Below are positions 23,303 through 58,218 of a stretch of 64,000 nucleotides of DNA, piece after piece. Source of the DNA: Pseudomonadota bacterium (GTDB lineage Bacteria > Pseudomonadota > Alphaproteobacteria > CACIAM-22H2). Below the pieces are notes generated by a model. The model worked only from the letters and a program-made list of their open reading frames with translations. It searched no databases and was not told the origin of the DNA. The DNA lies in NCBI GenBank assembly GCA_016201015.1, contig JACQDQ010000194.1, forward strand, positions 11,149 through 75,148, read 5' to 3'. Position 1 is the first letter of the stretch, and each line of letters starts with the position of its first letter. Both the position numbers and the translations under genes were made by a program.

Positions 23303-24231
23303 AGCCCGCCCTGGTCATCGCCGGTCCCACCGCGTCGGGCAAATCCGGGCTTGCGCTGAAGATAGCCCGCGAATTCGGCGGGGTGGTGATCAATGCGGAT
23401 TCCATGCAGGTCTATGATTGCCTGCCGATCCTGACCGCCCAACCGTCGCCCGCCGACGAGGCCGCCGTGCCCCATCGTCTCTATGCCGTCCTGGCGCCCG
23501 GCGAACTGTGCTCTGCGGCGCGGTGGAGCGAGATGGCGGCGGCCGCGATGCGGGCGGCCTGGGCCGAGGGCAAGCTGCCCATTCTCACCGGCGGCACCGG
23601 GCTTTACCTGCGCTCGGTGATGGAGGGGCTGTCGCCCATTCCCGAGATTCCCGATTCCGTCCGTGCCGAGGCCCGCGCCAAGCTGGCCGAGATGGGCAAC
23701 GAGGCCTTTCATGCCCGGCTGGCCCAGCGCGATTCCGAGATGGCAAGACGCCTGCAAGTGGGCGATTCCCAGCGCATGGCCCGCGCCTGGGAAGTGATCG
23801 AAGCCACCGGACGCTCCCTGGCCCTTTGGCAGGAGGACGCGCGCCAGGGCGCCGTCGCCGCCAACTGGTTCTCCATCACCCTGCTGCCCGAGCGGGCCCG
23901 GCTTTACGCCGCCTGTGACGGACGCTTCGGCGCCATGATGGCGGCCGGCGCCCTCGATGAAGTCCGCGCCTTCGAGGCCCAGAGCCACGCGCCCGACCTG
24001 CCGATCTCCAAGGCCCTGGGATTGCGGGAACTGGCCGCCCTTCTGCGCGGCGAGATGGGAGAGCAGGAGGCGATCGCCGCGGCCCGCCAATCCACCCGCA
24101 ACTACGCCAAGCGCCAGCTCACCTGGTTCCGCCATCAATTGAATGCGTCGATGGTAGCTTCCGAGCAACTTTCGGAAAGTTTAATAGCCACAATCTTTCT
24201 GAAAATTCGCCAACACCTCTTGACCCCATGA
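23299..24231 (+). CDS. miaA: tRNA dimethylallyltransferase MiaA
   Basis: P-loop GPTASGKS, ADSMQVY and ILTGGTGLY motifs. The ORF-track ORF at 22276 is an upstream extension of this frame. Confidence 0.9.
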   Translation: MKPALVIAGPTASGKSGLALKIAREFGGVVINADSMQVYDCLPILTAQPSPADEAAVPHRLYAVLAPGELCSAARWSEMAAAAMRAAWAEGKLPILTGGTGLYLRSVMEGLSPIPEIPDSVRAEARAKLAEMGNEAFHARLAQRDSEMARRLQVGDSQRMARAWEVIEATGRSLALWQEDARQGAVAANWFSITLLPERARLYAACDGRFGAMMAAGALDEVRAFEAQSHAPDLPISKALGLRELAALLRGEMGEQEAIAAARQSTRNYAKRQLTWFRHQLNASMVASEQLSESLIATIFLKIRQHLLTP

Positions 24232-24336
24232 GGACATGGGGATAGGTTGTGCCCCCGCGCCGCAGTGCAGCAGCGCGATTCCTTGCGTGCCCGCCGCTTT
24301 TCGCGGGCGACAACGACATAAGCTTAAGGTGCTGAG

Positions 24337-26103
24337 ATGGTGCATCACGATACGTTGACCGGAGCGGAAATCCTCCTCAAGGCCCTGGTCGATCAGGGCG
24401 TAGAGGTCATTTTCGGATATCCCGGCGGCGCCGTACTGCCCATCTATGACGAGCTGTTCAAGCAGAACCGGCTGCGCCACGTGCTGGTGCGTCACGAGCA
24501 GGCCGCCGTCCATGCCGCCGAAGGCTATGCGCGGTCCACCGGCAAGGTCGGCTGCGTCCTGGTGACCTCGGGCCCCGGCGCCACCAATGCGGTGACCGGC
24601 CTGGCCGACGCCCAATGCGATTCGGTGCCGCTGGTCTGCCTGACCGGGCAGGTGCCCACCCATCTGATCGGCAACGACGCCTTCCAGGAAGCCGACATCA
24701 CCGGCATCACCCGGCCGTGCACCAAGCACAATTATCTGGTCAAGGACGTCAACGACCTGGCCCGCATCGTCCACGAGGCCTTCCATGTGGCCCGCTCGGG
24801 CCGCCCCGGCCCGGTCCTGGTGGACCTGCCCAAGGACGTGGTCCAGGCCAAGGGCGAGTACCAGACGCCCTCCAAGGTCAAGTCCAAGTACAAGCCCCAG
24901 GTCAAGGGCGACCTGAAGGCCATCGAGAAGGCGGTCGAGATGATCGCCCACGCCAAGCGGCCGATCTTCTACGTGGGCGGCGGCGTGGTCAATTCCGGCC
25001 CGGCGGCCTGTCAGCTCATGACCCAGTTCGTGCGCATGACCGGCTATCCCTGCACGCTCACCCTGATGGGCCTGGGCGCCATTCCCGGTTCGGACCCGCT
25101 GTTCCTGGGCATGTTGGGCATGCACGGCACGGTCGAAGCCAATATGGCCATGCATGGCTGCGACCTGATGATCAATATCGGCGCCCGCTTCGACGACCGC
25201 GTCACCGGCAAGCTGGACGGCTTCTCGCCGGATTCCAAGAAGATCCATGTGGACATCGATCCCAGCTCCATCAACAAGAACGTGGCCGTGGATCTGGCCA
25301 TCGTCGGCGATTGCGCCCATGTCCTCGAGGACATGATCAAGGTGTGGAAGGCCAAGCAATGCCGCGTCGATGATAAGGCGCTGAAGGCGTGGTGGGCTCA
25401 GATCGACCAGTGGCGCGCCACCGATTGCCTGGCCTTCGAGAATTCCAACAAGATCATCAAGCCGCAATACGCCGTGCAGCGCCTCTACGAACTGACCCGG
25501 CACCGCAACCCCTATTTCTGCACCGAAGTGGGCCAGCATCAGATGTGGGCGGCCCAGTATCTGAAGTTCGACCTGCCCCATCACTGGCTGACCTCGGGCG
25601 GGTTGGGCACCATGGGTTACGGCCTGCCCTCGGCCATGGGCGTGCAGATGGCCCATCCCGACGCCCTGGTGGTCAATATCGCCGGCGAGGCCTCGATCCA
25701 GATGAACATCCAGGAGATGGCCACCCTGGTGCAGCATCGCCTGCCGGTGAAGATCGTCATTCTCAACAACCAGTATCTGGGCATGGTCCGCCAGTGGCAG
25801 GAGCTGATCCATGGCGGCCGCTACTCGGAAAGCCACATGATCCACCATCCCGATTTCGTCAAGCTGGCCGAGGCCTTCGGCGCCGTCGGCCTGCGCGCCG
25901 AAAAGCCCGAGGAGGTCGATGGCGTCATCAAGGAGATGATGGCGGTGGACCGCCCGGTCATCGTCGAGATGCGCACCGATGCCTCGGAGAACGTCTTCCC
26001 CATGATCATGCCCGGCATGGCCCATAACGAGATGGTGCTGGGCCCGGAGGACAAGGGGCGCGACAAGCCGGGCTCGGAGCAAGACGGCATGGTTCTGGTG
26101 TAA
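24337..26103 (+). CDS. ilvI: acetolactate synthase large subunit
   Basis: 588 aa. TPP-enzyme N-domain, central domain and TPP-binding GLGAMGYGLPSA-type motif. Confidence 0.95.
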   Translation: MVHHDTLTGAEILLKALVDQGVEVIFGYPGGAVLPIYDELFKQNRLRHVLVRHEQAAVHAAEGYARSTGKVGCVLVTSGPGATNAVTGLADAQCDSVPLVCLTGQVPTHLIGNDAFQEADITGITRPCTKHNYLVKDVNDLARIVHEAFHVARSGRPGPVLVDLPKDVVQAKGEYQTPSKVKSKYKPQVKGDLKAIEKAVEMIAHAKRPIFYVGGGVVNSGPAACQLMTQFVRMTGYPCTLTLMGLGAIPGSDPLFLGMLGMHGTVEANMAMHGCDLMINIGARFDDRVTGKLDGFSPDSKKIHVDIDPSSINKNVAVDLAIVGDCAHVLEDMIKVWKAKQCRVDDKALKAWWAQIDQWRATDCLAFENSNKIIKPQYAVQRLYELTRHRNPYFCTEVGQHQMWAAQYLKFDLPHHWLTSGGLGTMGYGLPSAMGVQMAHPDALVVNIAGEASIQMNIQEMATLVQHRLPVKIVILNNQYLGMVRQWQELIHGGRYSESHMIHHPDFVKLAEAFGAVGLRAEKPEEVDGVIKEMMAVDRPVIVEMRTDASENVFPMIMPGMAHNEMVLGPEDKGRDKPGSEQDGMVLV

Positions 26104-26115
26104 GGGGGAACGGAC

Positions 26116-26631
26116 GTGAGCAAGCCCATGGAAGAAGTCAACCGCCACACCGTCGCCGTCCTGGTGGACAACGAATCCGGCGTGCTGGCCCGGGTCATCG
26201 GCCTGTTTTCGGGCCGGGGCTATAACATCGAAAGCCTGACCGTGGCCGAGGTCGATGCCGGCGAGAAGCTGTCGCGCATTACCATCGTGACCAGCGGCAC
26301 CGCCATGATCATCGAGCAGATCAAGAATCAGCTGCGTCGCCTGGTGCCGGTGCACAAGGTCCATGACCTGACCATCGAAGGCCCCCATGTGGCCCGCGAA
26401 CTGGCCCTGGTCAAGGTGACCGCCACCGGCGACAAGCGGGTGGAATCCTTGCGTATCGCCGACATCTTCCGGGCCCGCGCCATCGACTCCACCAACGAAT
26501 CGTTCGTGTTCGAAGTGGTCGGCGCCACCGAGAAGGTGGACGCCTTCATCAAGCTGATGGAGCCGCTGGGCCTCGCCGATGTTTCGCGGACCGGCGTCGT
26601 CGCCATTGCGCGCGGACCGAATCCGATTTAG
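26116..26631 (+). CDS. ilvH: acetolactate synthase small (regulatory) subunit
   Basis: ACT domain start (HTVAVLVDNESGVLARVIGLFSGRGYNIESL); 171 aa. Confidence 0.9.
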   Translation: MSKPMEEVNRHTVAVLVDNESGVLARVIGLFSGRGYNIESLTVAEVDAGEKLSRITIVTSGTAMIIEQIKNQLRRLVPVHKVHDLTIEGPHVARELALVKVTATGDKRVESLRIADIFRARAIDSTNESFVFEVVGATEKVDAFIKLMEPLGLADVSRTGVVAIARGPNPI

Positions 26632-27705
<1,074 letters not shown>

Positions 27706-27733
27706 GCTTCGGCACGGTTCTGACGATCGGGAA

Positions 27734-27767
27734 GGCCCCGGCGGGAAACCGCCGGGGCCTTTTTCGT
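27734..27767. terminator. bidirectional rho-independent terminator between ilvC and the convergent repeat-protein gene
   Basis: GGCCCCGGCGGgaaaCCGCCGGGGCCttttt. Confidence 0.6.
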
Positions 27768-29068
27768 CAGCGCACGAAGCGCCCGAACAGATCTTCCGCG
27801 AAAGCCGCGAATGCGAGGGGCGAACTGTCGGGGCCAAGGCCGGCCCGCCTGGCCTTCTCGATCAGGGCCAGCATCACCACCAATTCGCTCTTGCGGCCGA
27901 ACAGGCGCTCGAAGACGGGAGCGGGCAGCAACAAGGCCGACTTGGTCAACATCGCCGCCATCTGTTCCGACGACAGGCCGAAATCCACCGTCAGGCGCCG
28001 CACGGTTCCGGCGCCGGTCGTGGCCAGGGCCCGGCTGGCGCGGCGCAACTCCTCGAGGCTGGGGCGGCCGAGGGCATCCTTGATCTCGGGGCGGACCAGG
28101 ATCGACACCATGGTCTCCATGCGGATCAGGCGGCCGTCCAAGGACAGCAGCTTGTCCACACGGGGGCGTTCATCGAACAGGGGGGCATCGAACAGGGGGG
28201 CATCGAACAGGGGAGCGCTGGGCAGCGAGGCGCTGCCGACCACCGCTTCCGGGGGCACGGCGGGCATGGGCTCGGGCGCAGGCAGGGGCTCGGGCGCAGG
28301 CAGGGGCTCGGCCCGTAGCGGTGCGGCCTCGGCCTCGTCGCCGGGCAACAGCCGGTAATCCTGGCCCCCATCCAGCCAAGCCGCCAATTGCGCCGGATCA
28401 CGGAAGTCGAGAATGCGCGCCCCCAGGGCCAGGACTTCCGGCGGGCTCATGCGGGCGTATTGCGGAATGATGGGCACTTGCCAATCGTGCAGCAGGTAGC
28501 GGTGAATGGACGAGTAAAGCAGGTCGGCGGGCGAGGACCGGGAGGCAAGACGCGCGCGGCGATGCGCCTGGGTCCGCCCCGCCAGCCATTGGGTCATGCC
28601 GCCCCATCCCAATCCCTCGGGCCGGTCGAAGCGCGAGCCCGAGCGCCCGGTCCAGGGAGCGGGCGGATTGAGACGCTGGCGGAAATGCCGCTTGGCCGCC
28701 GAGCGTACGATCATGGCCACCACCTGATTGATGGTCCGGCCACATTCCAGCGGCGTATTGTCGCTGTCCACCGGCACCAGGTTGCGATCCAGCAGAATGG
28801 GCCGGAACAGGTCACGATGGGCGCGAAAGGCCTGGAAGCAGGAATGCAGGCTTTGCCAGTCGGCCAGGATCATCTCGAACTCCCGTCCCCTGGGCAGCAC
28901 CGCCAGATCCGGCACCAACCCGGTCATGATCCGAATCATCGGCCCGGCCAGACTTTCGTTGATACGCCGGCGGCGACGCTGGTTGGCGACGGCCGCGGCG
29001 GTGGCGAGGGTAGAGGATGAGGACATGACCTTAACTCCGACTCCTAACAGGGACAATTCCGAGCTCAC
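27767..29068 (-). CDS. hypothetical protein with a Pro/Ala-rich repeat linker (PLPAPE x2, PLFDA x3)
   Basis: 433 aa with high GC3; no recognisable catalytic motif. Both the N-terminal ~230 aa domain and the C-terminal helical domain are unassigned. Confidence 0.5.
   Translation of the reverse strand: MSSELSLLGVGVKVMSSSSTLATAAAVANQRRRRRINESLAGPMIRIMTGLVPDLAVLPRGREFEMILADWQSLHSCFQAFRAHRDLFRPILLDRNLVPVDSDNTPLECGRTINQVVAMIVRSAAKRHFRQRLNPPAPWTGRSGSRFDRPEGLGWGGMTQWLAGRTQAHRRARLASRSSPADLLYSSIHRYLLHDWQVPIIPQYARMSPPEVLALGARILDFRDPAQLAAWLDGGQDYRLLPGDEAEAAPLRAEPLPAPEPLPAPEPMPAVPPEAVVGSASLPSAPLFDAPLFDAPLFDERPRVDKLLSLDGRLIRMETMVSILVRPEIKDALGRPSLEELRRASRALATTGAGTVRRLTVDFGLSSEQMAAMLTKSALLLPAPVFERLFGRKSELVVMLALIEKARRAGLGPDSSPLAFAAFAEDLFGRFVR
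28171..28312. repeat. two in-frame DNA tandem repeats (15-nt unit x3, 18-nt unit x2) inside the 27767..29068 gene
   Basis: catcgaacagggggg x3 and ggctcgggcgcaggcagg x2. Confidence 0.75.
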
Positions 29069-47699: not shown

Positions 47700-48653
47700 A
47701 TGATTTACCGGACATGCGCTGCATATGCGGCGGGCGTCCTGGGACTCGTCCTGGGGCTGAGTCTGAGAATCGACATGGCGGCGGCCGAACCCTTCTACGT
47801 CGGCGCCAAGAAGTGCGAGGAATGCCATCGCCCAGAAAGCGACGTATGGGAGGGCATGAAGCACGCAAAGTCGTTCGGCGAGATCCACCGTAAGCCGGAA
47901 GTTCGCGCGATCATTCAGGCCGCCGGCGGCAACACCAACATGCGGCGCAACGAGGTCTGCATCCAGTGCCACTACACGAATGCCAAGGCCGACGCGGGCG
48001 CCCAACCGCAGGCAGTATCCGGACCATCGTGCGAATCCTGCCACGGACCAGCTTCCGATTGGATCTCGGTCCACAACAATTTCGGCGGGCCGAACGCCAA
48101 GAAGGCCGACGAAACGCCGGCTAACAGGGCCAAGCGCCAGGCGGACGCCTCGAAGGCCGGCATGATCTGGCCGCAGGAGATATACGAGGTCGCGCAAAAC
48201 TGCATGTCCTGTCACGGACTGTCGCGCCCAGGCGTCGATGGCGCAGCGATTGGCAAGATGATCGAGGCGGGGCACCCGGTTAAGGGCGAATTCGAATTCG
48301 TGCTCTATTCGCAGGGCACAGTTCGCCACCGCTTCTATAACTCGACAACGAATTCGGAGATGGCGCCTGCCGAAGCGGCACGCGCCTTCATCGCCGGCCA
48401 TGCGGCGGCGCTGGTCAACGTAACGGCGGCCAAGGGCAAGAGCAGCGATGCCAAATTCACAGCTGCGCAGCAAAAGCTCGAGCAGGCAGCGCGCAAGGCG
48501 CTGGACGCGGTCAAGGGCGCGGCGCCGGAAGCGGCGACCCTGCTCTCCGCGCCCACTGACGACAACGCCCAGAAACTGGTTGCGGCGATCGCCAGCAAGG
48601 ATCTCTCGGCGCAAGTCGGTGGTATGCTGCCGGCGAAGAACACCTATAAGTAG
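47700..48653 (+). CDS. periplasmic tetrahaem c-type cytochrome with an Ala/Lys-rich helical C-terminal tail
   Basis: Four CxxCH motifs (CEECH, CIQCH, CESCH, CMSCH) after a hydrophobic N-terminal leader. Confidence 0.75.
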   Translation: MIYRTCAAYAAGVLGLVLGLSLRIDMAAAEPFYVGAKKCEECHRPESDVWEGMKHAKSFGEIHRKPEVRAIIQAAGGNTNMRRNEVCIQCHYTNAKADAGAQPQAVSGPSCESCHGPASDWISVHNNFGGPNAKKADETPANRAKRQADASKAGMIWPQEIYEVAQNCMSCHGLSRPGVDGAAIGKMIEAGHPVKGEFEFVLYSQGTVRHRFYNSTTNSEMAPAEAARAFIAGHAAALVNVTAAKGKSSDAKFTAAQQKLEQAARKALDAVKGAAPEAATLLSAPTDDNAQKLVAAIASKDLSAQVGGMLPAKNTYK

Positions 48654-48750
48654 GGTGACCGAATCGCCGAAGAGTTTGGATTGAGCGGCGTGTGATCAAT
48701 TTGTTCGGAGGTAGGCCCGCGAGAACAGATGGCGGTGCCGCGGGCAACGG

Positions 48751-50463
48751 GTGCGGCATGGGGAAGGGACGAGGGAACAGGCGATGACCGATGTCGCGAT
48801 GATGGCACGGCCCCAGCGCTGGGACGTGCCGTTCGACCCCGCGATGACCGATGCCGACGTGCGACTCCTGTTGCAGCGGCGAGAGTTCCGCGACATCAAG
48901 CCGGACAACTTTCCGCCGCACATGCCGCTCGAGGGCATCCTCAAGAACGACGCGCGTCTCGTCCACTTTCGGCCGGGCGACATCGTGGTGCGCGAAGGCG
49001 ACTATGGCAACTCCGCCTTCCTCGTCCTCGAGGGCCGTCTGCGCGTGGTGCTGGCGCCGGGGCTGCCGCCCGATCTTCACGGCCGGCAGCACGGCCGCCA
49101 GAAGGGCTTCTTCGAGGCGCTGGCGCAGCTATGGACCAATCGCCGTATCCCGGAGGTGCGGGACATCCGTCGTTACCGCTTCGCCCGCGAGGGACTGCGG
49201 CACGATTACTCGAGCGGCAATGTCCGCGTGTTCATTCAGGACATCCCTGCCGTACTCGACAAGCACCGCACCGCCGGTCTTGAGGATGGCGCGATCTTCG
49301 GCGAGATCGCCGCGCTTGGGCGCGTGCCGCGTACCGCCTCGATCTTCGCCGAGACTGATGCCAGGCTGCTCGAAATTCGCTGGCAGGGCCTTCGGGAACT
49401 TCGCCGCTACGACGAGAATTGGCGACGGCAGATCGACGAACGGTACCGAGCAAACGCACTGCGCACGCATCTTCGGGACACCAAGATCTTCGAGGGCTTG
49501 GACGAGAATGTGCTTGAGGCCATTGCCGAGCGGACCCTGTTCGAAACCTATGGCAGCTTCGACTGGCACCTTTCCTATAAGCAGCTCATGCAGCGCGGCG
49601 AAAATGCGGAAGCGAAGGAGCCGGTTATCGCGCAGCAGGGCGACTATCCCGACGGTGTATTGCTGATTCGCGCAGGCTTCGCGCGGGTCAGCATGAAGCT
49701 GGGTACCGGGAAGCGGACGCTCACCTATCTAGGTGCCGGAGATCACTATGGATTCGACGAACTCTATGCCAATTGGAAATCCGGGGAAACAAAGCCGTTG
49801 CAGACGACGCTGACGGCGGTCGGCTATATCGACATCTTGCGTGTTCCGGCCGAAGTGCTCGAGAAGCATGTCTTTCCCCGCCAGGCGCAACCGCCCAAGG
49901 CGCTCATTTCGCTCGCCGACCGCCCGCTGTCCGACGATGCCTTGATCGACTGGGCCGTCGACAAGCGGTTCATCAACGCCACCAAGGCGATGCTCATCGA
50001 TCTCGATCGCTGCGTGCGCTGCGACGATTGTGTCCGCGCCTGCGCCAGCACCCATGGCGGCAATCCGCGCTTTGTCCGCGCCGGCTCGACGTTCGACCAC
50101 TGGATGGTCACGAACGCCTGCATGCATTGTGCCGACCCGGTCTGCATGATCGGCTGCCCGACCGGCGCCATCCATCGCAGCCTCGAAGGCGGTACGGTCG
50201 TCATCAACGACGACACTTGCATCGGCTGCGGCACCTGTGCCGCGTCGTGCCCCTACGACAACATCCGCATGGTCGAAATCACCGACGTGAGCGGCAAGGA
50301 GCTGGTCGACCCGAAGACGCGGCAGCCCATTCTCAAGGCGACCAAGTGCGATCTGTGCGAGAGCAATCCGGGCGGCCCGGCTTGCGTTCGCGCCTGCCCG
50401 CACGACGCATTGCGGCGTGTCGACTTCCGCGATACCAATCCCTTCCGGTCGCCGAACGCATGA
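48751..50463 (+). CDS. fusion protein: two cNMP-binding (CAP-like) domains plus a four-cluster [4Fe-4S] NrfC/DmsB-type ferredoxin module
   Basis: Beta-roll/FGEIAALG signature appears twice. C-terminus carries CVRCDDCVRAC, CMHCADPVCMIGCP, CIGCGTCAASCP and CDLCESNPGGPACVRACP. No HTH and no Tat signal. Confidence 0.75.
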   Translation: MRHGEGTREQAMTDVAMMARPQRWDVPFDPAMTDADVRLLLQRREFRDIKPDNFPPHMPLEGILKNDARLVHFRPGDIVVREGDYGNSAFLVLEGRLRVVLAPGLPPDLHGRQHGRQKGFFEALAQLWTNRRIPEVRDIRRYRFAREGLRHDYSSGNVRVFIQDIPAVLDKHRTAGLEDGAIFGEIAALGRVPRTASIFAETDARLLEIRWQGLRELRRYDENWRRQIDERYRANALRTHLRDTKIFEGLDENVLEAIAERTLFETYGSFDWHLSYKQLMQRGENAEAKEPVIAQQGDYPDGVLLIRAGFARVSMKLGTGKRTLTYLGAGDHYGFDELYANWKSGETKPLQTTLTAVGYIDILRVPAEVLEKHVFPRQAQPPKALISLADRPLSDDALIDWAVDKRFINATKAMLIDLDRCVRCDDCVRACASTHGGNPRFVRAGSTFDHWMVTNACMHCADPVCMIGCPTGAIHRSLEGGTVVINDDTCIGCGTCAASCPYDNIRMVEITDVSGKELVDPKTRQPILKATKCDLCESNPGGPACVRACPHDALRRVDFRDTNPFRSPNA

Positions 50464-51275
50464 AGGCCCTGGCGCGTGCCCTTGCCGTTCCGGCCGGGAT
50501 CAGCCTCCTCTTCGTTGCGGGGCTGGCCCTGTGGCTGCATCAGCGCTGGCTTCAACTCGGCGACACCGGCCGCATCACCGGCTACATATTGTTCGCCGTG
50601 ATGTTGGGGCTCGGCGTGCTCAATCTGCGCAAGCGCCTGTCAATGGTGCCGTTGGCCCGCGCAGCCGACTGGGTGTCATGGCATGCCGTTGGCGGCGTGC
50701 TGGCCCTCGCGCTATTCTGGCTGCACACCAACACGCTGTGGCCAGCGGGACCGTACGAGCAGTTTCTCGCCTTGCTATTTTATCTGGTGACAATTACCGG
50801 CATCGCCGGATATGCGTTGCAGAAGGTGACTCCGAAGTGGCTGACGCAGACCGGAATCGAGCTCATTTTCGAACGGATTCCGATCGAGATCGTGCGGTTG
50901 CGATTGACCGCTGAGCGTGTCGTCTACGATTGCTGCGAGGCGACGGGGAGCGAGACCCTGGGCCGCTTCTATCTCGAAACGCTCGACTGGTATTTCCGCA
51001 AGCCACGCTTCCTGACCAGCACCCTGGGTGGCGGGCGGCGCGGCCAGCGCTGGGTCCGGCAGCAATGCGACGGTGTCGCGCGCGCACTCCAGGCCAATGA
51101 AATTTCCTATCTCGAGACGCTGCGCCAGCTCGCGGACGCAAAGGCGCTGGCCGACATTCACTATTCCCTGCAAGGGGCAACCAAGCTTTGGCTGCTCGTC
51201 CACGTGCCGCTCGCGGCAGCGGTTCTGGTGGTCGCTCTGTGGCACTTGCTCGTCGTCAGCGTCTACGCCCTATGA
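50460..51275 (+). CDS. polytopic membrane protein (5 predicted TM) with intramembrane His residues, possibly b-type haem binding
   Basis: TM helices with H27, H76, H90, H250, H262; ATGA start-stop overlap with the upstream Fe-S gene. Confidence 0.55.
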   Translation: MKALARALAVPAGISLLFVAGLALWLHQRWLQLGDTGRITGYILFAVMLGLGVLNLRKRLSMVPLARAADWVSWHAVGGVLALALFWLHTNTLWPAGPYEQFLALLFYLVTITGIAGYALQKVTPKWLTQTGIELIFERIPIEIVRLRLTAERVVYDCCEATGSETLGRFYLETLDWYFRKPRFLTSTLGGGRRGQRWVRQQCDGVARALQANEISYLETLRQLADAKALADIHYSLQGATKLWLLVHVPLAAAVLVVALWHLLVVSVYAL

Positions 51276-53191
51276 CCCAGCCCTTCAAGTTCATCCCTGT
51301 CGATACTGGCTACGAGCGGCCGAATTTTCCGTGGCGCTGCGGCGCCGGCGCGCACTGGACGCGTCCGTGCACGCTGGGCCCCTCGATCCACGGCCAATGC
51401 CGCGGTACATCGGAATGCGCTCCGACGCGCAAGGGGGATCGCTGGGAGTGCCGCCGCCCGGCCTCGCTCGGGGGATCATGTCCGGTCGGGCCCGGCACCG
51501 ATGGCAGCTGCTCGCAGATTCATCCCCCCTGCGCGCCGGTGCGCACGATCCGCGGCTGGCGCGGGCACCTCACGGTGCTTGCCATCGTCCTCATGCTCAG
51601 TCTGATTGCAGCACTGCACAGCGAATCCTTTACCCGGGCGAGTGGGGTGAGCTCGATCAATCCTGGTCCGCTCACCAGCCGCCACGCGCAGTTCGTCGGT
51701 GAACAGGGTTGTGCCACCTGCCATGCCGCACATGGCCAGGGGCCAGGCGGCTGGTTGGCAGCGGCATTCGCCCCGCGCGATGCGAGCGGCCGCTGCGTCG
51801 ACTGCCATGCCTTCGGCGGATCGGCTGAAGCGGCCCACAACACGACGTTTGAGAAGCGACAAGACGTGGCGCAGACGTCGTGCATCATGTGCCATACAGA
51901 GCACAAGGGCCAAACGGCCAATCTCGTGCAGATTGCCGATGCCCAGTGTCAGACCTGTCACACCGAGAAATTCGACCACTTCGCCAAGAATCATCCGCAG
52001 TTTGGCCCGCACTATCCGTATCCCGAGCGTGGGGCCATCCAATTCAACCACGTCGCCCATTTCGATAAGCACTTCGCCGACCCGCGGTACAAGCCGAACG
52101 CGCCGACGGGCTGCGTCGGCTGCCATCGCCTCGACGCCGGGGTGAACGTCATGCGCACGACGAAATTCGCCGACATGTGCGCGACATGCCATACCGATCA
52201 GATCACGCGGCGCGAATTCGTCCTGTTCCGCTTGCCTGAATTCAACGAGAGCAAGATTGCCGCCGCAAAGGTCACGGAGGCGTGCGGTCCGTCTCCTGCC
52301 GAGTTGGAGTCGCTCAAGGCGCGGCTGAATGCGCTGACGCGCGGCACGCCGTCGCCGCCGGCGAAGAATGAGCCGTATTCGAGCATCTCTGCCGATCCGC
52401 CCAACGCGGTGCTGGCCTATTTGCTGGGGGTGCCGGCCGACGATCCGGACGCCTACGGCGAGTCGGTCCAATCTCTTGTGCTGGACATGGCCCGTGACGG
52501 TGTTATGCCGTTGGCCGACAAGCTGCCGGCCTCCGCTGCGAGGCCGGCGCTGCTCGCCGGCCTCAACGGCGAATTGGTCCGCCGCGTCGCCTGCGCCTGG
52601 GCGGCCAATCGCGAATACGAGCCGCCGCCGGAAGGCAAGGGAACGACCGGATGGAAGGCGGACGGCCTAACGCTGCGCTTGGTTCCGGCCGGCCATGCCG
52701 ATCCGGTCGTGCGCAGTTGGTTGGATTTTGTTGTCTCCGGACCGCCGGCAAAGAGCAAGGAAGATGCTGCCCGACTCGACGCGATGCGCAAGGAGATGCT
52801 GTCGACCGCGGAAGGGCCCGGAGCGTGCGTCAAATGCCATGCCCTGACGGCGGCTTCGGCCGACAAGTTGCAAATAGATTGGTCGAAGCACTACGCGCGC
52901 AGCGGGCCGCAGACGCGCTTCCTGCATGCCCCGCACGTCAACTTGCTGGGGCCGGATGCGACGTGCACCGTCTGCCATAAATTCGATTCGACCGCCGACT
53001 ACGCGGCCGCCTTCAAGACCCTGGACCCACACCAATACGTCAGCAACTTCAAGGCAATGGTGACAACGACCTGCAGCGGGTGCCACGCCGCGGGCAAAGT
53101 CCGGGCTGATTGCCAAGCCTGCCATATCTATCATCGCGACCACACGTTCAAAAAGCGCATGGTGAACATCGACTCGGCAGCGGCCAACTGA
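51272..53191 (+). CDS. decahaem c-type cytochrome with an N-terminal Cys-rich segment and one TM helix
   Basis: Ten CxxCH motifs. The first ~100 aa hold 8 Cys but no CxxCH, followed by LTVLAIVLMLSLIAAL. ATGA overlap with the upstream gene. Confidence 0.8.
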   Translation: MTQPFKFIPVDTGYERPNFPWRCGAGAHWTRPCTLGPSIHGQCRGTSECAPTRKGDRWECRRPASLGGSCPVGPGTDGSCSQIHPPCAPVRTIRGWRGHLTVLAIVLMLSLIAALHSESFTRASGVSSINPGPLTSRHAQFVGEQGCATCHAAHGQGPGGWLAAAFAPRDASGRCVDCHAFGGSAEAAHNTTFEKRQDVAQTSCIMCHTEHKGQTANLVQIADAQCQTCHTEKFDHFAKNHPQFGPHYPYPERGAIQFNHVAHFDKHFADPRYKPNAPTGCVGCHRLDAGVNVMRTTKFADMCATCHTDQITRREFVLFRLPEFNESKIAAAKVTEACGPSPAELESLKARLNALTRGTPSPPAKNEPYSSISADPPNAVLAYLLGVPADDPDAYGESVQSLVLDMARDGVMPLADKLPASAARPALLAGLNGELVRRVACAWAANREYEPPPEGKGTTGWKADGLTLRLVPAGHADPVVRSWLDFVVSGPPAKSKEDAARLDAMRKEMLSTAEGPGACVKCHALTAASADKLQIDWSKHYARSGPQTRFLHAPHVNLLGPDATCTVCHKFDSTADYAAAFKTLDPHQYVSNFKAMVTTTCSGCHAAGKVRADCQACHIYHRDHTFKKRMVNIDSAAAN

Positions 53192-53546
53192 CCGGCGGCG
53201 CGGCCGGCCGGCACGCCTCGGTTTGCGCTGCATCAAAGGCTGAGAGGAGTTCGCAGTATGGGCCGGCAACCGGTTCAAAACATTTATGAATTGCTGCGCG
53301 TGTAGTATGGTGTATAAAGGTTAATCAGTGTCCGGGTGGCGCCGCGGGGTTTCGCCATGTTAAGGTTTTGGTAACGGGTACTGGTGTCCGATGAAGCAGC
53401 GAGCACAAGCAGTGGTAAGGCTCCGCTCGAACCAGGAACGAGACCGGGACGGACGGCCAAAATCCCGGCGCTATCGCAGGCGGTCTGCCAGGGAGGTTGA
53501 CGCTTCCGCGCCATTGCGGCGCGGCTGGATTGGGGAGACGCCCTCC

Positions 53547-55331
53547 ATGTCTCGTCGCATTCGGCTCGCGACCACCGCGATCGCGGCCTCGTTCCGCGTC
53601 GCTTCATCAATGCTTTTGGGACTGTCGATCAGCGCCGCGGCCACCGCGGGGAGCGCATGGGCACAGACCGCGGCAGCAGGGGTAGACCCGCATGCTGCGT
53701 TGCTCGCTGAGACTTCGTATCCTAGCGCGTCGCAATGCGCGGTGTGTCACCGCCAGATCTACAACGAATGGTCTTCGTCGAATCACGCCTATGCGTCGAT
53801 CTCGCCGATGTTCCACAAGTTCGAGCAGGCGATCAACGAGCTCGCCTCGGGGACGGTCGGTACGTTCTGCGTACGTTGTCACCAGGGCGCCGGCACGCAA
53901 CGCGGCGAGCCGCGCGAGAAGCCGCTGTGGGAGCGCTCGGCTGCCGCGCGCGAAGGCGTCACCTGTATCTCCTGTCATCGCGTGCAGGAGGAATACGGGC
54001 GTGCCAACGGTGAGCGGCTGATCGAGCCCGGCGATGTCTCTGCGCCTGTCTTTAACGCGCACGAATCGACCGGGCTCGGCAAGGTGATCGCCGAGAATGA
54101 TTTCTACAAGGTGGCGACGACGCCGGCCGAGCGCGGCAGCCGCATCCATCTCAGAGCGCTCAAGAATGAGCAGATCGGCAAGTCGGAATTCTGTCTGTCC
54201 TGCCATCAGGTTGCGGTCCATCCAGGCATCAAGCTCGAGGTCGTGTGGGAGCAGTACCGCGCGGCGCCGGCGGCGCAGCAGGGCGTGGTCTGCCAGGAAT
54301 GCCACATGGGCAAGGTTCCCGGTAAGCCGATGGGCTATGCCGTCGGCCCGACTGCGGTGGTCAACGGGCAGGCCGTCGAACCGAACCGCAAGCACTCCAA
54401 CCACTCATTCTACGGGCCGGGTTATCCAATCGCCCATCCGGGCATCTTTCCGCACAATCCCAAGGCCGAGAACCATTCGATCCAAGAATGGCTACGCTAT
54501 GACTATCGCGCCGGCTGGGGCAATCCCGAGTTTGAGGACAAGGTCGAGAAAAATCAGATCAAGGCGGAATTCCCACAGGAATGGGCCGACCGCGTCGACC
54601 GCGAGGAAGCCTTCGAAGTCATCCAGGAGAATCTGCAGCGGCTCGAGGAGAAGCGGAAGCTGCGTGTCGCCGTCATGGAGAATGGCTCCAAGATCGACGG
54701 ACCGTTTTTCGGCTCCACGCCCCGGCTTGGTCAATCGCTGAGTTTCACCTATCGCGTAGCGAACACGAGCACCGGCCACAACTTTCCGTCCGGCTCGCTC
54801 GGCGCTCAACCGGAAATCTGGCTGAACGTCGCGCTGACCGATCCGGCCGGCAAGACGGTGTGGGAATCCGGCTATACCGACAGCAACGGCGACATGGCCG
54901 ACCTGCACTCGCACGATGTCGCCGCCAGCCGCATCAAGCACGACGATCAGCTGTTCAACCTGCAGACCAAGTTCCTGACCACCAACGTCAAGGGCACGGA
55001 TCGCGAGATGTATCTGCCGATCAATTTCGACGTCGATCAACTGCCCTTCATACGGCCTGCAACTATACCGACGACCGTGCTCAACCATCCGCCTTTCATC
55101 CGCATGGAAGGGCGAAGCCTGCCGCCGCTGAGTTCGCGCAACGCCAATTACAGCGTGACCGGCTCGGCGCTCTCGGCGCCTGGCAAGTACCGGCTGTCGG
55201 TGCGTCTGCGGAGCCGTGCCGAGCCGATCTACTTCATGCGCTTCGTCGGGGCCACTGTCGAAATGGAGCAGGCGATGAATGAGTGGCTCATCGACATTCA
55301 TCCCTACGCCGTCGAGTTCGAGGTGAAATGA
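53547..55331 (+). CDS. pentahaem c-type cytochrome with a ~330 aa haem-free C-terminal domain
   Basis: Signal peptide plus CAVCH, CVRCH, CISCH, CLSCH, CQECH. The ORF track starts at 53391, but MSRRIRLATTAIAAS followed by a signal sequence is the likely start. Confidence 0.7.
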   Translation: MSRRIRLATTAIAASFRVASSMLLGLSISAAATAGSAWAQTAAAGVDPHAALLAETSYPSASQCAVCHRQIYNEWSSSNHAYASISPMFHKFEQAINELASGTVGTFCVRCHQGAGTQRGEPREKPLWERSAAAREGVTCISCHRVQEEYGRANGERLIEPGDVSAPVFNAHESTGLGKVIAENDFYKVATTPAERGSRIHLRALKNEQIGKSEFCLSCHQVAVHPGIKLEVVWEQYRAAPAAQQGVVCQECHMGKVPGKPMGYAVGPTAVVNGQAVEPNRKHSNHSFYGPGYPIAHPGIFPHNPKAENHSIQEWLRYDYRAGWGNPEFEDKVEKNQIKAEFPQEWADRVDREEAFEVIQENLQRLEEKRKLRVAVMENGSKIDGPFFGSTPRLGQSLSFTYRVANTSTGHNFPSGSLGAQPEIWLNVALTDPAGKTVWESGYTDSNGDMADLHSHDVAASRIKHDDQLFNLQTKFLTTNVKGTDREMYLPINFDVDQLPFIRPATIPTTVLNHPPFIRMEGRSLPPLSSRNANYSVTGSALSAPGKYRLSVRLRSRAEPIYFMRFVGATVEMEQAMNEWLIDIHPYAVEFEVK

Positions 55332-56890
55332 TTCGCAGGGGAGAAGCGGGGGGGAGCGAGAGTCGCCCCGACGCAACAGGGCGCGGAGGGCGCCATCGCG
55401 CAGGCCGATGGTTGCTGGCATGCGTCGGCGCGATCGCGCTGGCAGCCGCTGCACATGCGGCCGATCCGCCGGAGATGTCGCCCGACGTCAAGTCGATTCC
55501 TTACGATCCGAAGGTATTCAAGCAGGACCCGACCTACGACGACAAGCCGTACGATGCGCAGCGGCAGCAGGATATCTATGGTGGGAAGAAGGCGGTCGAT
55601 ACGCCGCGGCCGGTGATCGAAATCGGTCGCCCGCTCTACACCGAAGGTCCGTTTCGTCCGAGCTCGGTACTGCTTGGCGAAAAGAATCTGATCGCGCCCA
55701 GCCTGTGGCTTTACGGCGACTGGCGGACGGCGGTGGCCTACAACGACAACGGCAAGAAGGAGGATGCGCAGATCGCCACCCGCCTGAATCTTGATGTCGA
55801 TCTGAAGCTTACCGCGACCGAACGCGTCCACGCCTTCTTCCGTCCGCTTGATCAGGGCGGCCAGTTCACGCATTACTCATTTGCCGGCGACGATCGCAGT
55901 CAGGGCAAGTTCATCAAGGACGGCAATCTCGAGAACTTATTCTTCGAAGGCGATCTCGGCGCGATGGCGCAGGGACTGACCGGGGAATACAACGGCGTCG
56001 ATCTGCCCGTCGCCGCCGGCCTCATGCCGATGCTGTTCCAGAACGGCGTGTGGGTCGACGACGCGTTTACCGGATTTGCCTTCGCGATTCCGGCGCGAAA
56101 CAGCAAATTCCTCGACATCTCCAACATGGACATCACCTACTTCATGGGCCTCGACAAGGTGTCCACCGCGGCGATCAGGGATGACAAGAAACAGATCGCC
56201 GACCACAACGTGCAGCTCTATGGCGTCGCCGCGTTTGTCGAAACGCTCGAAGGTTACTTCGAAGTCGGCTACGGCTATACGCGTGGTGAGGGGATATTCG
56301 ACGAACTCAGCTATCACAACGCGACGCTCGCGTTTACCCGGCGTTACGGCGGCTTCTTGTCGAACAGCGTGCGGGGCATCTGGAATTTCGGCCAGAACCG
56401 CCGCAACAACCAGCAGCAAACCGCTGACGGCTTCATCTTGTTGGTCGAAAACTCGCTGATCACCTCGAAGCCGCTGACGCTGGTGCCATATTTCAATTTC
56501 TTTGCCGGATTCGATCGGCCGCAGTCGTTGGCGCGCGATCCGGGTGCCGGCGGCGTGCTCAAGAATACCGGCATCAACTTCGAGACCGATGGCCTGACCG
56601 GCTTTCCGAAGCTCGACGATACCGGGCAGAACACCTATGGCGGCGCGGTCGGTCTGCAGTATTTGTTCAATCTCGACCAGCAGATCGTGGTCGAGGCGGC
56701 GGGGCTCAAGGTGCGTGAAGGCAACTTCGAGGCCGGACGTCCGGCGCGCGGCGATGAATTCGCGATTGGCGTGCGCTACCAGATTCCGGTGACAAATCGT
56801 TGGATCTTCCGCGCCGACGCGATCAAGGCGTGGCGCGAGAATGACGCGGATTTCGCCGGGATCCGCGCGGAGGTTCGGCGCAAGTTCTGA
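55328..56890 (+). CDS. putative outer-membrane beta-barrel (porin-like) protein
   Basis: Signal peptide WLLACVGAIALAAAAHA, alternating amphipathic beta-strand pattern, Tyr/Gly-rich, C-terminal ...VRRKF; ATGA overlap with the pentahaem gene. Confidence 0.55.
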   Translation: MIRRGEAGGSESRPDATGRGGRHRAGRWLLACVGAIALAAAAHAADPPEMSPDVKSIPYDPKVFKQDPTYDDKPYDAQRQQDIYGGKKAVDTPRPVIEIGRPLYTEGPFRPSSVLLGEKNLIAPSLWLYGDWRTAVAYNDNGKKEDAQIATRLNLDVDLKLTATERVHAFFRPLDQGGQFTHYSFAGDDRSQGKFIKDGNLENLFFEGDLGAMAQGLTGEYNGVDLPVAAGLMPMLFQNGVWVDDAFTGFAFAIPARNSKFLDISNMDITYFMGLDKVSTAAIRDDKKQIADHNVQLYGVAAFVETLEGYFEVGYGYTRGEGIFDELSYHNATLAFTRRYGGFLSNSVRGIWNFGQNRRNNQQQTADGFILLVENSLITSKPLTLVPYFNFFAGFDRPQSLARDPGAGGVLKNTGINFETDGLTGFPKLDDTGQNTYGGAVGLQYLFNLDQQIVVEAAGLKVREGNFEAGRPARGDEFAIGVRYQIPVTNRWIFRADAIKAWRENDADFAGIRAEVRRKF

Positions 56891-56946
56891 TCGGCGCCGG
56901 CTGGTCCGATCGGGCGTATCAGATCGAAGAGGAACGGGGCGGAGCG

Positions 56947-58218
56947 GTGGATATCCTTCTGACGGTTGCTGGGGCCGCGGTCATGGTGGCGATGGCGGCC
57001 TATGTCGTGAATCTTAGCCTCATGCAGTGGCGGGTCGCCGCGTTGGCGCGCGGCCGCGTCGAGGATGAGCGGACTCTGCTCAAGGAGCGGATCGCGCAGC
57101 TCGCCTTGAAGCGGCAGTTCGAAGAGCAGCGCAACGAATTGTCGTGGAGCGGGTTCCGCAAGTTCGAAGTCGTGCGTAAGGTGCTCGAGGGCGGCGGCGT
57201 CGCCTCGATCTATATGCGCCCGCACGATGGCAAAAAGCTGCCGCCGTTCCGTCCGGGCCAGTACTTGACGTTCCGGCTTAATGTTCCCGGTCAGCGTCAA
57301 CCGGTCATCCGCTGCTATTCGCTGTCCGACAACCCGAATCCCGAGCATTTCCGCATCTCGGTGAAGAAAGTGCTGCCGCCACGCGATAAGCCGGATGTGC
57401 CGTCCGGCCTGTCGTCGACCTACTTCAACGACGTGGTGAAGGAAGGCGATATCATCGATGTGAAGGCACCGGGTGGCGGCTTCTACCTCGACACCACCAA
57501 GCCACGCCCGATCGTTCTGATCGGCGGCGGCATTGGGCTGACGCCGGTCTTTAGCATGCTCAAGGCGGTCTGCGAATCGTCGAGCAAGCAGGAGGCTTGG
57601 TTCTTCTATGGCGTGCGCAATCGCGTCGAGCATATTTGGCGCGATGAATTCTCGCGGATTGCGCGTGAAAACGAGAATGTCCGTTTGCATGTCTGCTATA
57701 GCGACCCGACGCCCGAGTGCCACGAGGGCACCGACTACCAGCATGCGGCGCGAGTGGGTGTCGATCTCCTGAAGCGGCTGCTGCCGTCGAACAACTACGA
57801 GTTCTATATCTGCGGCCCGCCGCCGATGATGGATTCGATCACCTCAGGACTCGCCGAATGGGGCGTGCCCGAGGACCGCGTCCATTTCGAGGCATTCGGA
57901 CCGGCCACGGTCAAGAAGGTCGCGAAAGCGGCGGAGGCGCCCGTGGCGGCACCCGGCGCGCCGACATTGCAGGTCCTATTCGCCAAGTCGGGGCGGACGG
58001 TTCGCTGGGACGGCCGCGCGGCATCGCTGCTCGAGCTTGCGGAGGCGAACGGCATCACGATCGATTTCGGCTGCCGTGCCGGCAATTGCGGCACATGCCT
58101 GACCGCGATCAAGAACGGCGACGTGAGCTACGTCAACCCGCCGGGTTCGATGCCGGAAAAGGGCTCGTGCCTGACCTGCGTGTCCGTACCCAAATCCGAT
58201 CTGACATTGGACGCCTGA
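56947..58218 (+). CDS. membrane-anchored ferredoxin-NAD(P) reductase family oxidoreductase with a C-terminal [2Fe-2S] ferredoxin domain
   Basis: N-terminal TM helix, FAD motif RCYSLS, NAD motif GGGIGLTP, and a C-terminal CRAGNCGTC...C plant-type ferredoxin motif; GTG start 57 nt after the beta-barrel gene. Confidence 0.8.
   Translation: MDILLTVAGAAVMVAMAAYVVNLSLMQWRVAALARGRVEDERTLLKERIAQLALKRQFEEQRNELSWSGFRKFEVVRKVLEGGGVASIYMRPHDGKKLPPFRPGQYLTFRLNVPGQRQPVIRCYSLSDNPNPEHFRISVKKVLPPRDKPDVPSGLSSTYFNDVVKEGDIIDVKAPGGGFYLDTTKPRPIVLIGGGIGLTPVFSMLKAVCESSSKQEAWFFYGVRNRVEHIWRDEFSRIARENENVRLHVCYSDPTPECHEGTDYQHAARVGVDLLKRLLPSNNYEFYICGPPPMMDSITSGLAEWGVPEDRVHFEAFGPATVKKVAKAAEAPVAAPGAPTLQVLFAKSGRTVRWDGRAASLLELAEANGITIDFGCRAGNCGTCLTAIKNGDVSYVNPPGSMPEKGSCLTCVSVPKSDLTLDA

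Follow-up and report, generated by a model that had tools for sequence, protein, structure and literature searches.

PtdE, a tandem cyclic-nucleotide-binding module fused to a four-cluster iron-sulfur protein, as candidate subunit of a sensor-regulated electron export system

What might a protein do that carries a cyclic-nucleotide sensor and an iron-sulfur (Fe-S) electron-transfer module on a single polypeptide? This question was raised by an open reading frame (ORF) at 48751..50463 on the plus strand of a 64,000-nucleotide (nt) stretch of DNA, the window, from a Pseudomonadota bacterium of the alphaproteobacterial lineage CACIAM-22H2 (assembly GCA_016201015.1, contig JACQDQ010000194.1, positions 11,149 to 75,148 of the forward strand). 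An earlier reading of the DNA letters without database searches (the original prediction) had proposed two CAP-type cyclic-nucleotide-binding (CNB) domains fused to a DmsB/NrfC-like subunit with four [4Fe-4S] clusters, and had suggested either ligand-gated electron transfer or redox sensing within a respiratory-type complex. Our analysis confirmed that the gene is real and that it encodes a cytoplasmic four-cluster Fe-S protein fused to a cyclic-nucleotide sensor; Pfam models for cNMP_binding and Fer4 domains both scored above their cut-offs within the one ORF. We identified the gene as ptdE and consider, with a probability of roughly 0.55, that its product is the cytoplasmic Fe-S subunit of a Ptd system which exports electrons from NAD(P)H without involvement of quinones and under regulation by the sensor. 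Such an architecture is unusual, and an electron valve under this kind of regulation would be new biology.

Read mechanically from the GTG at 48751, the ORF would encode 570 amino acids (aa). The start of ptdE is probably the ATG at 48784 with a product of 559 aa (48784..50463), because a deposited protein from a metagenome-assembled genome (MAG) has exactly this length and is 100% identical to the window protein (P0001, 'cyclic nucleotide-binding domain-containing protein'), and because a purine-rich, Shine-Dalgarno-like run (GAGGGA) lies 7 nt 5' of this ATG. Apart from this deposited copy, other sequences were at most 70% identical to the window protein.

A ptdABCDEFG operon with penta-, tetra- and decahaem cytochromes was named in a preprint on Alphaproteobacteria from marine oxygen-deficient zones (bioRxiv 10.1101/2023.11.21.568154), in which PtdA is described as a pentahaem protein with a beta-sandwich, PtdB as a porin, PtdC as a FAD/NAD(P) oxidoreductase, PtdD as a tetrahaem protein, PtdE as a cNMP-binding Fe-S protein, PtdF as a ferric-reductase-like membrane protein and PtdG as a decahaem protein. 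The window holds this gene set within 47700-58218, with haem counts of 4, 10 and 5, in the order ptdD-E-F-G-A-B-C, which is a circular permutation of A-G. By this match to the described gene set, the window gene is ptdE. The cluster was also shared by marine Rhodospirillaceae MAGs of the kind treated in the preprint. The respiratory-type setting of the original prediction holds insofar as the gene lies in an electron-transfer set; the seven-gene ptd cluster as such had gone unrecognised. The window protein thus belongs to an already named family and its gene set has been described before. What our analysis adds are four predicted clusters in place of two, a CNB tandem with only one canonical site in this clade, four invariant histidines in PtdF as presumed haem ligands, PtdE-PtdF fusions, variants with FHA domains, a conserved cysteine-rich region in PtdG that should be cytoplasmic, and a much wider range of habitats and phyla.

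The most conserved part of PtdE was its four-cluster ferredoxin module (49981..50427, plus strand; aa ~400-548), which showed four motifs within the C-terminal 150 aa in the order CxxCxxCxxxC (aa 410-420), CxxCx4CxxxCP (aa 446-458), CxxCxxCxxxCP (aa 479-489) and CxxCx8CxxxCP (aa 522-538). The 16 cysteines (aa 410, 413, 416, 420, 446, 449, 454, 458, 479, 482, 485, 489, 522, 525, 534 and 538) follow the nested order of the four-cluster superfamily and are predicted to hold four [4Fe-4S] clusters. We assessed conservation in 119 close homologues with 63-70% overall identity to the window protein and in 99 distant representatives, one per 50%-identity cluster; each cysteine was kept in 96-98 of the latter. 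Whereas the preprint credits PtdE with two 4Fe-4S clusters, 16 conserved cysteines therefore call for four. Pfam Fer4_11 scored 36.4 bits against a cut-off of 26.2, and Fer4_7 and related 4Fe-4S models were also above cut-off. The closest solved relatives were HycB3 of hydrogen-dependent CO2 reductase (7qv7_A, 5.9e-23, all four motifs aligned) and HycB of formate hydrogenlyase (7z0s_B, 2.1e-17), followed by ArrB, NrfC-like proteins, NarH and FdnH.

The proposed DmsB/NrfC likeness needs correction: the nearest relatives are of the cytoplasmic HycB/HydN kind, and every NCBIfam equivalog cut-off was missed. This rules out an orthologue of DmsB (score 66 against a cut-off of 214), NrfC (50.2 against 378), HybA (55.6 against 263) or HydN (60.3 against 260), and membership in the DsrO (56.3 against 200), HmcB (38.9 against 420), ArrB and TtrB equivalog groups was likewise not found. 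The module is thus a member of the four-cluster superfamily and no orthologue of any named subunit. With HycB, HydN and HycB3, which act as electron wires, it shares the cytoplasmic location and the order of the four [4Fe-4S] motifs, but those are stand-alone subunits of ~180-200 aa bridging soluble catalytic subunits, whereas PtdE has a sensor module of 390 aa and a haem-type membrane partner. With DmsB, NrfC, HybA and PsrB it shares the fold superfamily (Fer4_11; TIGR02951 DmsB 3.9e-18) and the translational coupling of an Fe-S subunit to a membrane subunit. Unlike these, PtdE has no Tat (twin-arginine translocation) signal and is not partnered by a molybdoenzyme or an NrfA-type protein; its place is across the membrane from theirs, in the cytoplasm.

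No hydrophobic stretch, transmembrane (TM) segment or signal peptide was found in PtdE, and a twin-arginine motif was not detected in its N-terminus, MTDVAMMARPQRWDVPFDP, which has no RR followed by a hydrophobic segment. Judged from these sequence features PtdE is cytoplasmic, and the relatives in which it is joined to the N-terminus of PtdF, itself on the cytoplasmic side, indicate the same location. A Pfam scan of the whole protein and of its N-terminal 399 aa at E-values up to 5 showed no helix-turn-helix (HTH) family and no further domain, and the C-terminus consists of the Fe-S module. The original prediction had likewise described a cytoplasmic Fe-S protein with neither a Tat signal nor a DNA-binding domain, and the C-terminal HTH that it had named as a potential objection is not there.

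The second half of the question concerns the sensor. Three stretches of PtdE, representing two domains, matched Pfam cNMP_binding (PF00027) with E=1.9e-23 and 82.7 bits, the gathering cut-off being 27.5. This removes the other objection that had been foreseen, that the domains might miss the profile threshold. By structure comparison (Foldseek, E ~5e-16, probability 1.0) the N-terminal ~390 aa matched the tandem CNB-A/CNB-B arrangement of PKA-R and PKG. Hence there are indeed two cNMP domains, as predicted, but they have the fold of the PKA-R/PKG tandem rather than being CAP-type, and the second is without the key arginine. PtdE resembles that tandem in that both domains are spanned and in that the CNB-A cassette (FGE-AAL-x3-PR-TA) fits the PKA/PKG consensus; it differs by a sequence identity of only 11-16%, by an insertion of 65 aa in CNB-A and by the CNB-B arginine. 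The output also differs, being an Fe-S domain in PtdE and inhibition of a kinase in PKA-R.

CNB-A (48901..49428, plus strand; aa ~40-215) was split by this insertion into separate Pfam stretches, and profile matches to PKG and PKA-R in the PDB spanned aa 50-93 and 155-206. Its phosphate-binding cassette, FGEIAALGRVPRTAS (aa 172-186, nt 49297-49341), had the consensus FGE(I/L)AALGRVPRTA and the canonical G-E...P-R-T-A pattern of proteins that bind cAMP or cGMP. Residues F172, G173, A176, L178, G179, R180 and R183 were invariant in the close homologues and E174, A177, P182, T184 and A185 were at least 90% conserved. Among the distant representatives Gly173 was kept in 95 of 99, Glu174 in 79 and Arg183 in 82. 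The first domain thus has the Gly-Glu...Arg-(Thr/Ser/Ala)-Ala cassette of functional binders, and the near-invariance of the ribose-phosphate contact residues argues that CNB-A still binds a cyclic nucleotide.

CNB-B (49501..49878, plus strand; aa ~240-365), which was recognised through the tandem Foldseek match, has a degenerate cassette. Its loop is longer than canonical and the phosphate-binding arginine of functional binders is lost, the window protein and the close clade having T344 at this position, which is an arginine in 60 of the 99 distant representatives. In the window protein CNB-B is therefore probably not a canonical nucleotide site.

Several further features of the N-terminal module were observed. 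The CNB-A insertion of ~65 aa (aa ~92-160, nt 49057-49263) was poorly predicted, with pLDDT (predicted local distance difference test) below 50 at aa 131-150, and yet had E124, R126, D153 and P155 invariant in the close clade and W117 conserved in at least 90%. A nearly invariant RPQRWD-x-PF motif was present at the extreme N-terminus of PtdE (aa 9-17, nt 48808-48834). Both are candidate surfaces for docking of partners. In four relatives (P0191, P0193, P0223 and P0290) FHA domains, which bind phospho-threonine, were fused before the CNB module or inserted into it, so that selection seems to have attached signalling inputs to this module repeatedly. Four other relatives (P0232, P0239, P0265 and P0268) had N-terminal extensions of 300-700 aa without a Pfam match.

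The membrane partner of PtdE is encoded by ptdF (50460..51275, plus strand), whose ATG (50460-50462) overlaps the TGA of ptdE (50461-50463) in an ATGA (50460-50463). PtdF is an inner-membrane protein of 271 aa, for which a confident AlphaFold2 model (pLDDT 91.9) showed five long helices and a helical insert of ~115 aa between helices 4 and 5. Sixteen alignment columns were invariant in 46 homologues, and four of these are histidines, which form the pairs H75/H89 and H248/H262, each spaced by 14 residues with one pair per helix on two helices. A spacing of 14 residues is that of the bis-His ligands of two stacked b haems in the cytochrome b of bc1 and in NOX. The histidines lie on helices 3 and 5 in the pattern of ferric-reductase domains, a family of which PtdF is a candidate member, and the model resembles dihaem bundles with CybB as a structural neighbour at fold level. 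PtdF is thus presumed to be a transmembrane wire of the dihaem-b type. Neither Foldseek nor sequence searches of the PDB showed a significant match, and PtdF and its homologues had no Pfam domain (at E-values up to 5 for PtdF) and belonged to no NCBIfam family.

PtdE and PtdF form one unit, as shown by the gene overlap, their constant adjacency and natural fusions. Single polypeptides with both parts complete were found in P0045 (828 aa), P0189, P0194, P0212 and P0317, which ranged from 66% to ~44% identity to the window protein. On its contig (L081 9001-15137) P0045 was called as a single gene, with a c554-like tetrahaem gene before it and an overlapping multihaem gene of 1,217 aa after it. 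This multihaem product has about the combined size of PtdG and PtdA and may be a second fusion. Positive-inside reasoning together with the PtdE-PtdF fusions places the N-terminus and the insert of PtdF in the cytoplasm. The translational coupling to a His-bearing membrane protein had been foreseen in the original prediction and is upheld by the ATGA overlap, the conserved pairing and the fusions; its comparison with NrfCD and HybAB pairs is not, as PtdF has five helices and two His pairs and is not a polytopic quinol-binding anchor of the NrfD, DmsC or HybB type.

Relatives of PtdE were widespread. With a word-indexed search 4,837 proteins were retrieved, and all of the best 120 were full-length and 63-70% identical; an exhaustive search of 1.84 billion cluster representatives gave 661 at E <=1e-30. 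When one genome per species was scanned, at least 573 of the 185,579 species representatives had a PtdE relative. The matches listed included carriers among Alpha-, Beta- and Gammaproteobacteria, Nitrospinaceae, Verrucomicrobiota, Planctomycetota, Elusimicrobia, Acidobacteriota and Poribacteria, with Kordiimonadales IMCC3096 (L021) and Minwuia thermotolerans (L020) as cultured ones, and sea water, groundwater, Lake Baikal and soil as sources. While the preprint reports ptd from saline habitats only, the relatives found here thus also came from MAGs of groundwater, freshwater lakes (Lake Baikal) and soil. A 'novel porin-multihaem cytochrome' cluster described from freshwater Verrucomicrobia (PMC5615132) was also considered and is a different system, which is octahaem-based and for which no Fe-S or cNMP-binding protein is mentioned.

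We surveyed gene order in 80 related loci (L001-L080) from about eight phyla by tblastn with the proteins of the window. PtdD and PtdF were each found in 77 of the 80 loci, PtdG in 74, PtdA in 63, PtdB in 60 and PtdC in 62, most absences being due to contig ends. The ptdD gene lay directly upstream of ptdE and ptdF directly after it in 77 loci each, the PtdA-PtdB pair was kept in 60, and the ptd gene set was present in at least 60. Wherever the contig extended, D-E-F-G was contiguous and co-oriented. The position of ptdA-B-C varied, as seen in L017, L019, L026, L040, L044, L046, L059, L061, L064, L071 and L076-L079: this block followed D-E-F-G in most Proteobacteria, was inverted downstream of it in Verrucomicrobia and Elusimicrobia, and lay upstream in Planctomycetota and Acidobacteriota. 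Because D-E-F-G stays together while A-B-C moves, D-E-F-G is the core unit to which PtdE belongs. PtdA and PtdB were also, at some loci, far more divergent (23-40% identity) than PtdE (50-57%).

Which known systems does such a unit resemble? In NarH-NarI, TmcB-TmcC, HmcF-HmcE and DsrK-DsrM a cytoplasmic Fe-S subunit is seated on a membrane-spanning dihaem cytochrome b, a module that in Tmc, Hmc and Dsr connects to multihaem cytochromes c of the periplasm. By analogy, modules of the Tmc/Hmc/Dsr type are the closest functional counterpart of PtdD-E-F-G, but PtdF has no detectable homology to NarI-type proteins and PtdE is not an HdrD/CCG-type protein. These known complexes exchange electrons with quinol or carry electrons inward, and none of them is known to have a nucleotide-sensing domain. 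A second likeness is to NOX5, STEAP and MsrQ-Fre, in which electrons pass from cytoplasmic NAD(P)H through flavin and two stacked b haems to an acceptor outside. In NOX and ferric-reductase systems the b haems are held by His pairs of the third and fifth helices, and in NOX5 a fused Ca2+-sensor domain acts as the gate. The whole Ptd path would thus resemble a split NOX, while the PtdE-PtdF pair resembles NarH-NarI or TmcB-TmcC.

On these grounds we propose the following path. Electrons from NAD(P)H most likely enter through PtdC, with its FAD and 2Fe-2S centres, and would be handed to the HycB-like module of PtdE, where four [4Fe-4S] clusters in a row would act as a wire. PtdE would dock on the translationally coupled PtdF, whose His pairs would bind two b haems, one close to either face of the inner membrane, and there electrons would cross. 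In the periplasm the tetrahaem PtdD and the decahaem PtdG would take them over and hand them on to pentahaem PtdA, placed together with the beta-barrel PtdB at the outer membrane. The proposed chain of NAD(P)H, FAD, 2Fe-2S, four [4Fe-4S], two haems b and haems c would be chemically natural and downhill, and the overall route would be a NOX-like, quinone-independent electron export. The tandem CNB module would serve as allosteric regulator, with a cyclic nucleotide switching either electron throughput or docking to PtdC or PtdF. Tight control would be physiologically sensible since outward electron flow dissipates the membrane potential, as in NADPH oxidases. Ligand-gated electron transfer, one of the two functions suggested originally, is plausible as the best reading of the sensor module because the GE...PRTA cassette of CNB-A is conserved and FHA domains were added in relatives. 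The fuller scheme, in which cAMP or cGMP on CNB-A repositions the sensor and thereby opens or closes the four-cluster wire feeding the path from NAD(P)H through PtdC, PtdE, PtdF and the multihaem cytochromes to the outer membrane, is offered here only tentatively.

Several points speak against this proposal of sensor-regulated export. The AlphaFold2 model of PtdE, built from the 119 homologues, was of moderate quality (pLDDT 76, predicted template modelling score 0.69). Neither the window protein nor its close clade has the CNB-B arginine, and about one fifth of the distant relatives lack the glutamate or arginine of CNB-A, so that control by nucleotides is maybe not universal. Direct contact between PtdC and PtdE is suggested by co-occurrence only, and the A-B-C block is separable from D-E-F-G. 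The direction of flow is argued only from thermodynamics, and PtdF might bind quinone as does its structural neighbour CybB. According to the preprint the function of Ptd 'remains completely unknown', and our literature searches on Ptd function retrieved no functional follow-up to it.

Part of these observations would also suit a PtdE that conducts electrons constitutively and does not respond to nucleotides, its CNB domains being mere scaffolding, either structural or for docking (of PtdC, PtdF or the PtdG N-terminus) or oligomerisation. Many bacterial domains of the CNB fold, in the CAP/FNR superfamily, are known to bind other ligands or none, and the lost CNB-B arginine, the large and poorly predicted insertion in CNB-A and the ~20% of distant relatives without its Glu or Arg would be in line with a scaffold. 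The near-invariant ribose-phosphate contacts of CNB-A (Gly, Glu, Arg and Thr/Ser-Ala) in the 119 homologues are hard to explain without a ligand, and we therefore regard a mere scaffold as rather unlikely.

Electrons might also run the other way, from an extracellular or periplasmic donor through PtdF and PtdE to PtdC and NAD(P)+ or another cytoplasmic acceptor. Multihaem cytochromes in the periplasm, cytochrome b in the membrane and an Fe-S protein in the cytoplasm are likewise combined in the inward-carrying Tmc and Hmc complexes of sulfate reducers, and carriers of the cluster include lithotrophs, among them Nitrospinaceae and, according to the preprint, nitrite oxidisers. Inward flow is opposed by the membrane potential and reduction of NAD(P)+ would require a very low-potential donor, and no hydrogenase or other gene for a low-potential donor is present in the cluster. 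Among solved structures, moreover, PtdC was closest to the reductase domain of flavohaemoglobin (3ozu, 2.9e-49), to NqrF and to phthalate dioxygenase reductase, all of which oxidise NAD(P)H. Reverse flow accordingly appears improbable, and export remains the direction that we favour.

Redox sensing, the other function originally suggested, would make PtdE a sensor of redox state or nucleotide that controls the complex or buffers cyclic nucleotide, the main flux passing from the quinone pool to PtdF. The regulatory type of the N-terminal module, the FHA domains in relatives and the resemblance of the PtdF fold to quinone-reactive dihaem CybB are in line with this. Yet four clusters arranged as in the HycB and DmsB wires typify through-conduction, all 16 cysteines are conserved, no output domain was found by Pfam, and PtdC, the obvious electron source, would be left without an acceptor. 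The redox sensor has little support, and we consider a sensor in place of a wire to be very improbable. Bacterial cNMP_binding domains are most often found in Crp/Fnr regulators, but an ordinary Crp/Fnr transcription factor misread through a frameshift, fusion or assembly artefact is ruled out by the lack of a DNA-binding domain, the C-terminal Fe-S module, the identical deposited 559-aa protein and the full-length architecture in thousands of assemblies.

If our preferred reading of PtdE as a regulated export subunit is true, carriers of ptd send cytoplasmic reducing power to the cell surface, bypassing the quinone pool and under direct control by a second messenger. Carriers include nitrogen-cycling lineages (Nitrospinaceae and oxygen-deficient-zone Alphaproteobacteria) and bacteria of marine, freshwater, groundwater and soil habitats, and this would represent a new mode of regulating respiration or extracellular electron transfer. 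A compact electron wire that can be switched by a ligand might also be of interest for bioelectronics. Should gating in particular be true, Ptd would be the first case in bacteria of a transmembrane electron conduit gated by a second messenger. It would occur in hundreds of species, most of them uncultured, and would be a functional counterpart of Ca2+-gated NOX5 built of Fe-S and multihaem parts.

All seven genes of the cluster lie on one strand (plus), with ATGA overlaps at E/F, F/G and A/B. The ptdD gene (47700..48653) encodes a c554-like periplasmic tetrahaem cytochrome with four CxxCH motifs (Pfam Cytochrome_C554, 5.7e-14) and a hydrophobic N-terminal signal or anchor segment (aa 6-24). 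The ptdA gene (53547..55331) encodes a pentahaem cytochrome c with five CxxCH motifs, a signal peptide and a long C-terminal region without haem motifs; its only solved relative was cytochrome c552 (5ze8_A, 4.3e-7), and it fits the preprint's description of PtdA. PtdB (55328..56890; 520 aa) is a putative outer-membrane beta-barrel, for which a signal-like N-terminus, a terminal phenylalanine (...RRKF) and the assignment in the preprint point to a porin; no Pfam or NCBIfam match was found at E-values up to 5. PtdC (56947..58218), the presumed entry point for NAD(P)H, is a flavoprotein of the FNR type (Pfam FAD_binding_6, NAD_binding_1 and Fer2) with a C-terminal plant-type 2Fe-2S domain and a membrane anchor in the form of an N-terminal TM segment (aa 3-21).

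The ptdG gene (51272..53191) encodes a decahaem cytochrome c with ten CxxCH motifs in a periplasmic haem domain and one TM helix (aa 98-116), which is preceded by a cysteine-rich N-terminal region of ~95 aa. This region (aa ~14-95; 51311-51556) should be cytoplasmic, has RTIRGWRGH after it and contains eight cysteines, arranged as two repeats of RCGR-x6-PC-x2-GP-x3-G-x-C-x5-C-x-P. Of the 74 related loci in which it was matched, 69 had the two-repeat form with eight cysteines; four had one repeat (L026, L027, L043 and L036) and one was cut by the contig end (L031). No Pfam or NCBIfam match was found for the PtdG N-terminus at E-values up to 5, and the text of bioRxiv 10.1101/2023.11.21.568154 does not describe the region. 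A role as metal or Fe-S site is conceivable, through which the decahaem protein would be held to PtdE or PtdF on the cytoplasmic side.

Scans for regulatory elements gave little. No FNR/Crp box was found upstream of ptdD, and promoter and terminator scans inside the cluster gave counts no higher than chance. In the 355-bp gap between ptdG and ptdA the site TTGCGCTGCATCAA (53223-53236) differs by two mismatches from the FNR/Crp consensus TTGAT-N4-ATCAA; it may be a chance occurrence, since the window has 22 two-mismatch sites against 11.7 expected. Among the neighbours scanned there was no adenylate or guanylate cyclase, a systematic search for cyclases not having been made. The cluster is flanked by unrelated housekeeping genes on the opposite strand, encoding an alpha/beta hydrolase and a 2-keto-3-deoxy-galactonokinase, and sarcosine oxidase, gamma-glutamyltranspeptidase, PBP2/RodA and LeuA are encoded further off. 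Elsewhere in the window, an ORF of 1,218 aa without a Pfam match (24181-27837, minus strand) overlapped long plus-strand ORFs at 24337-26103 and 26647-27705; it may be spurious in this DNA of 65% G+C or may encode an unannotated large protein.

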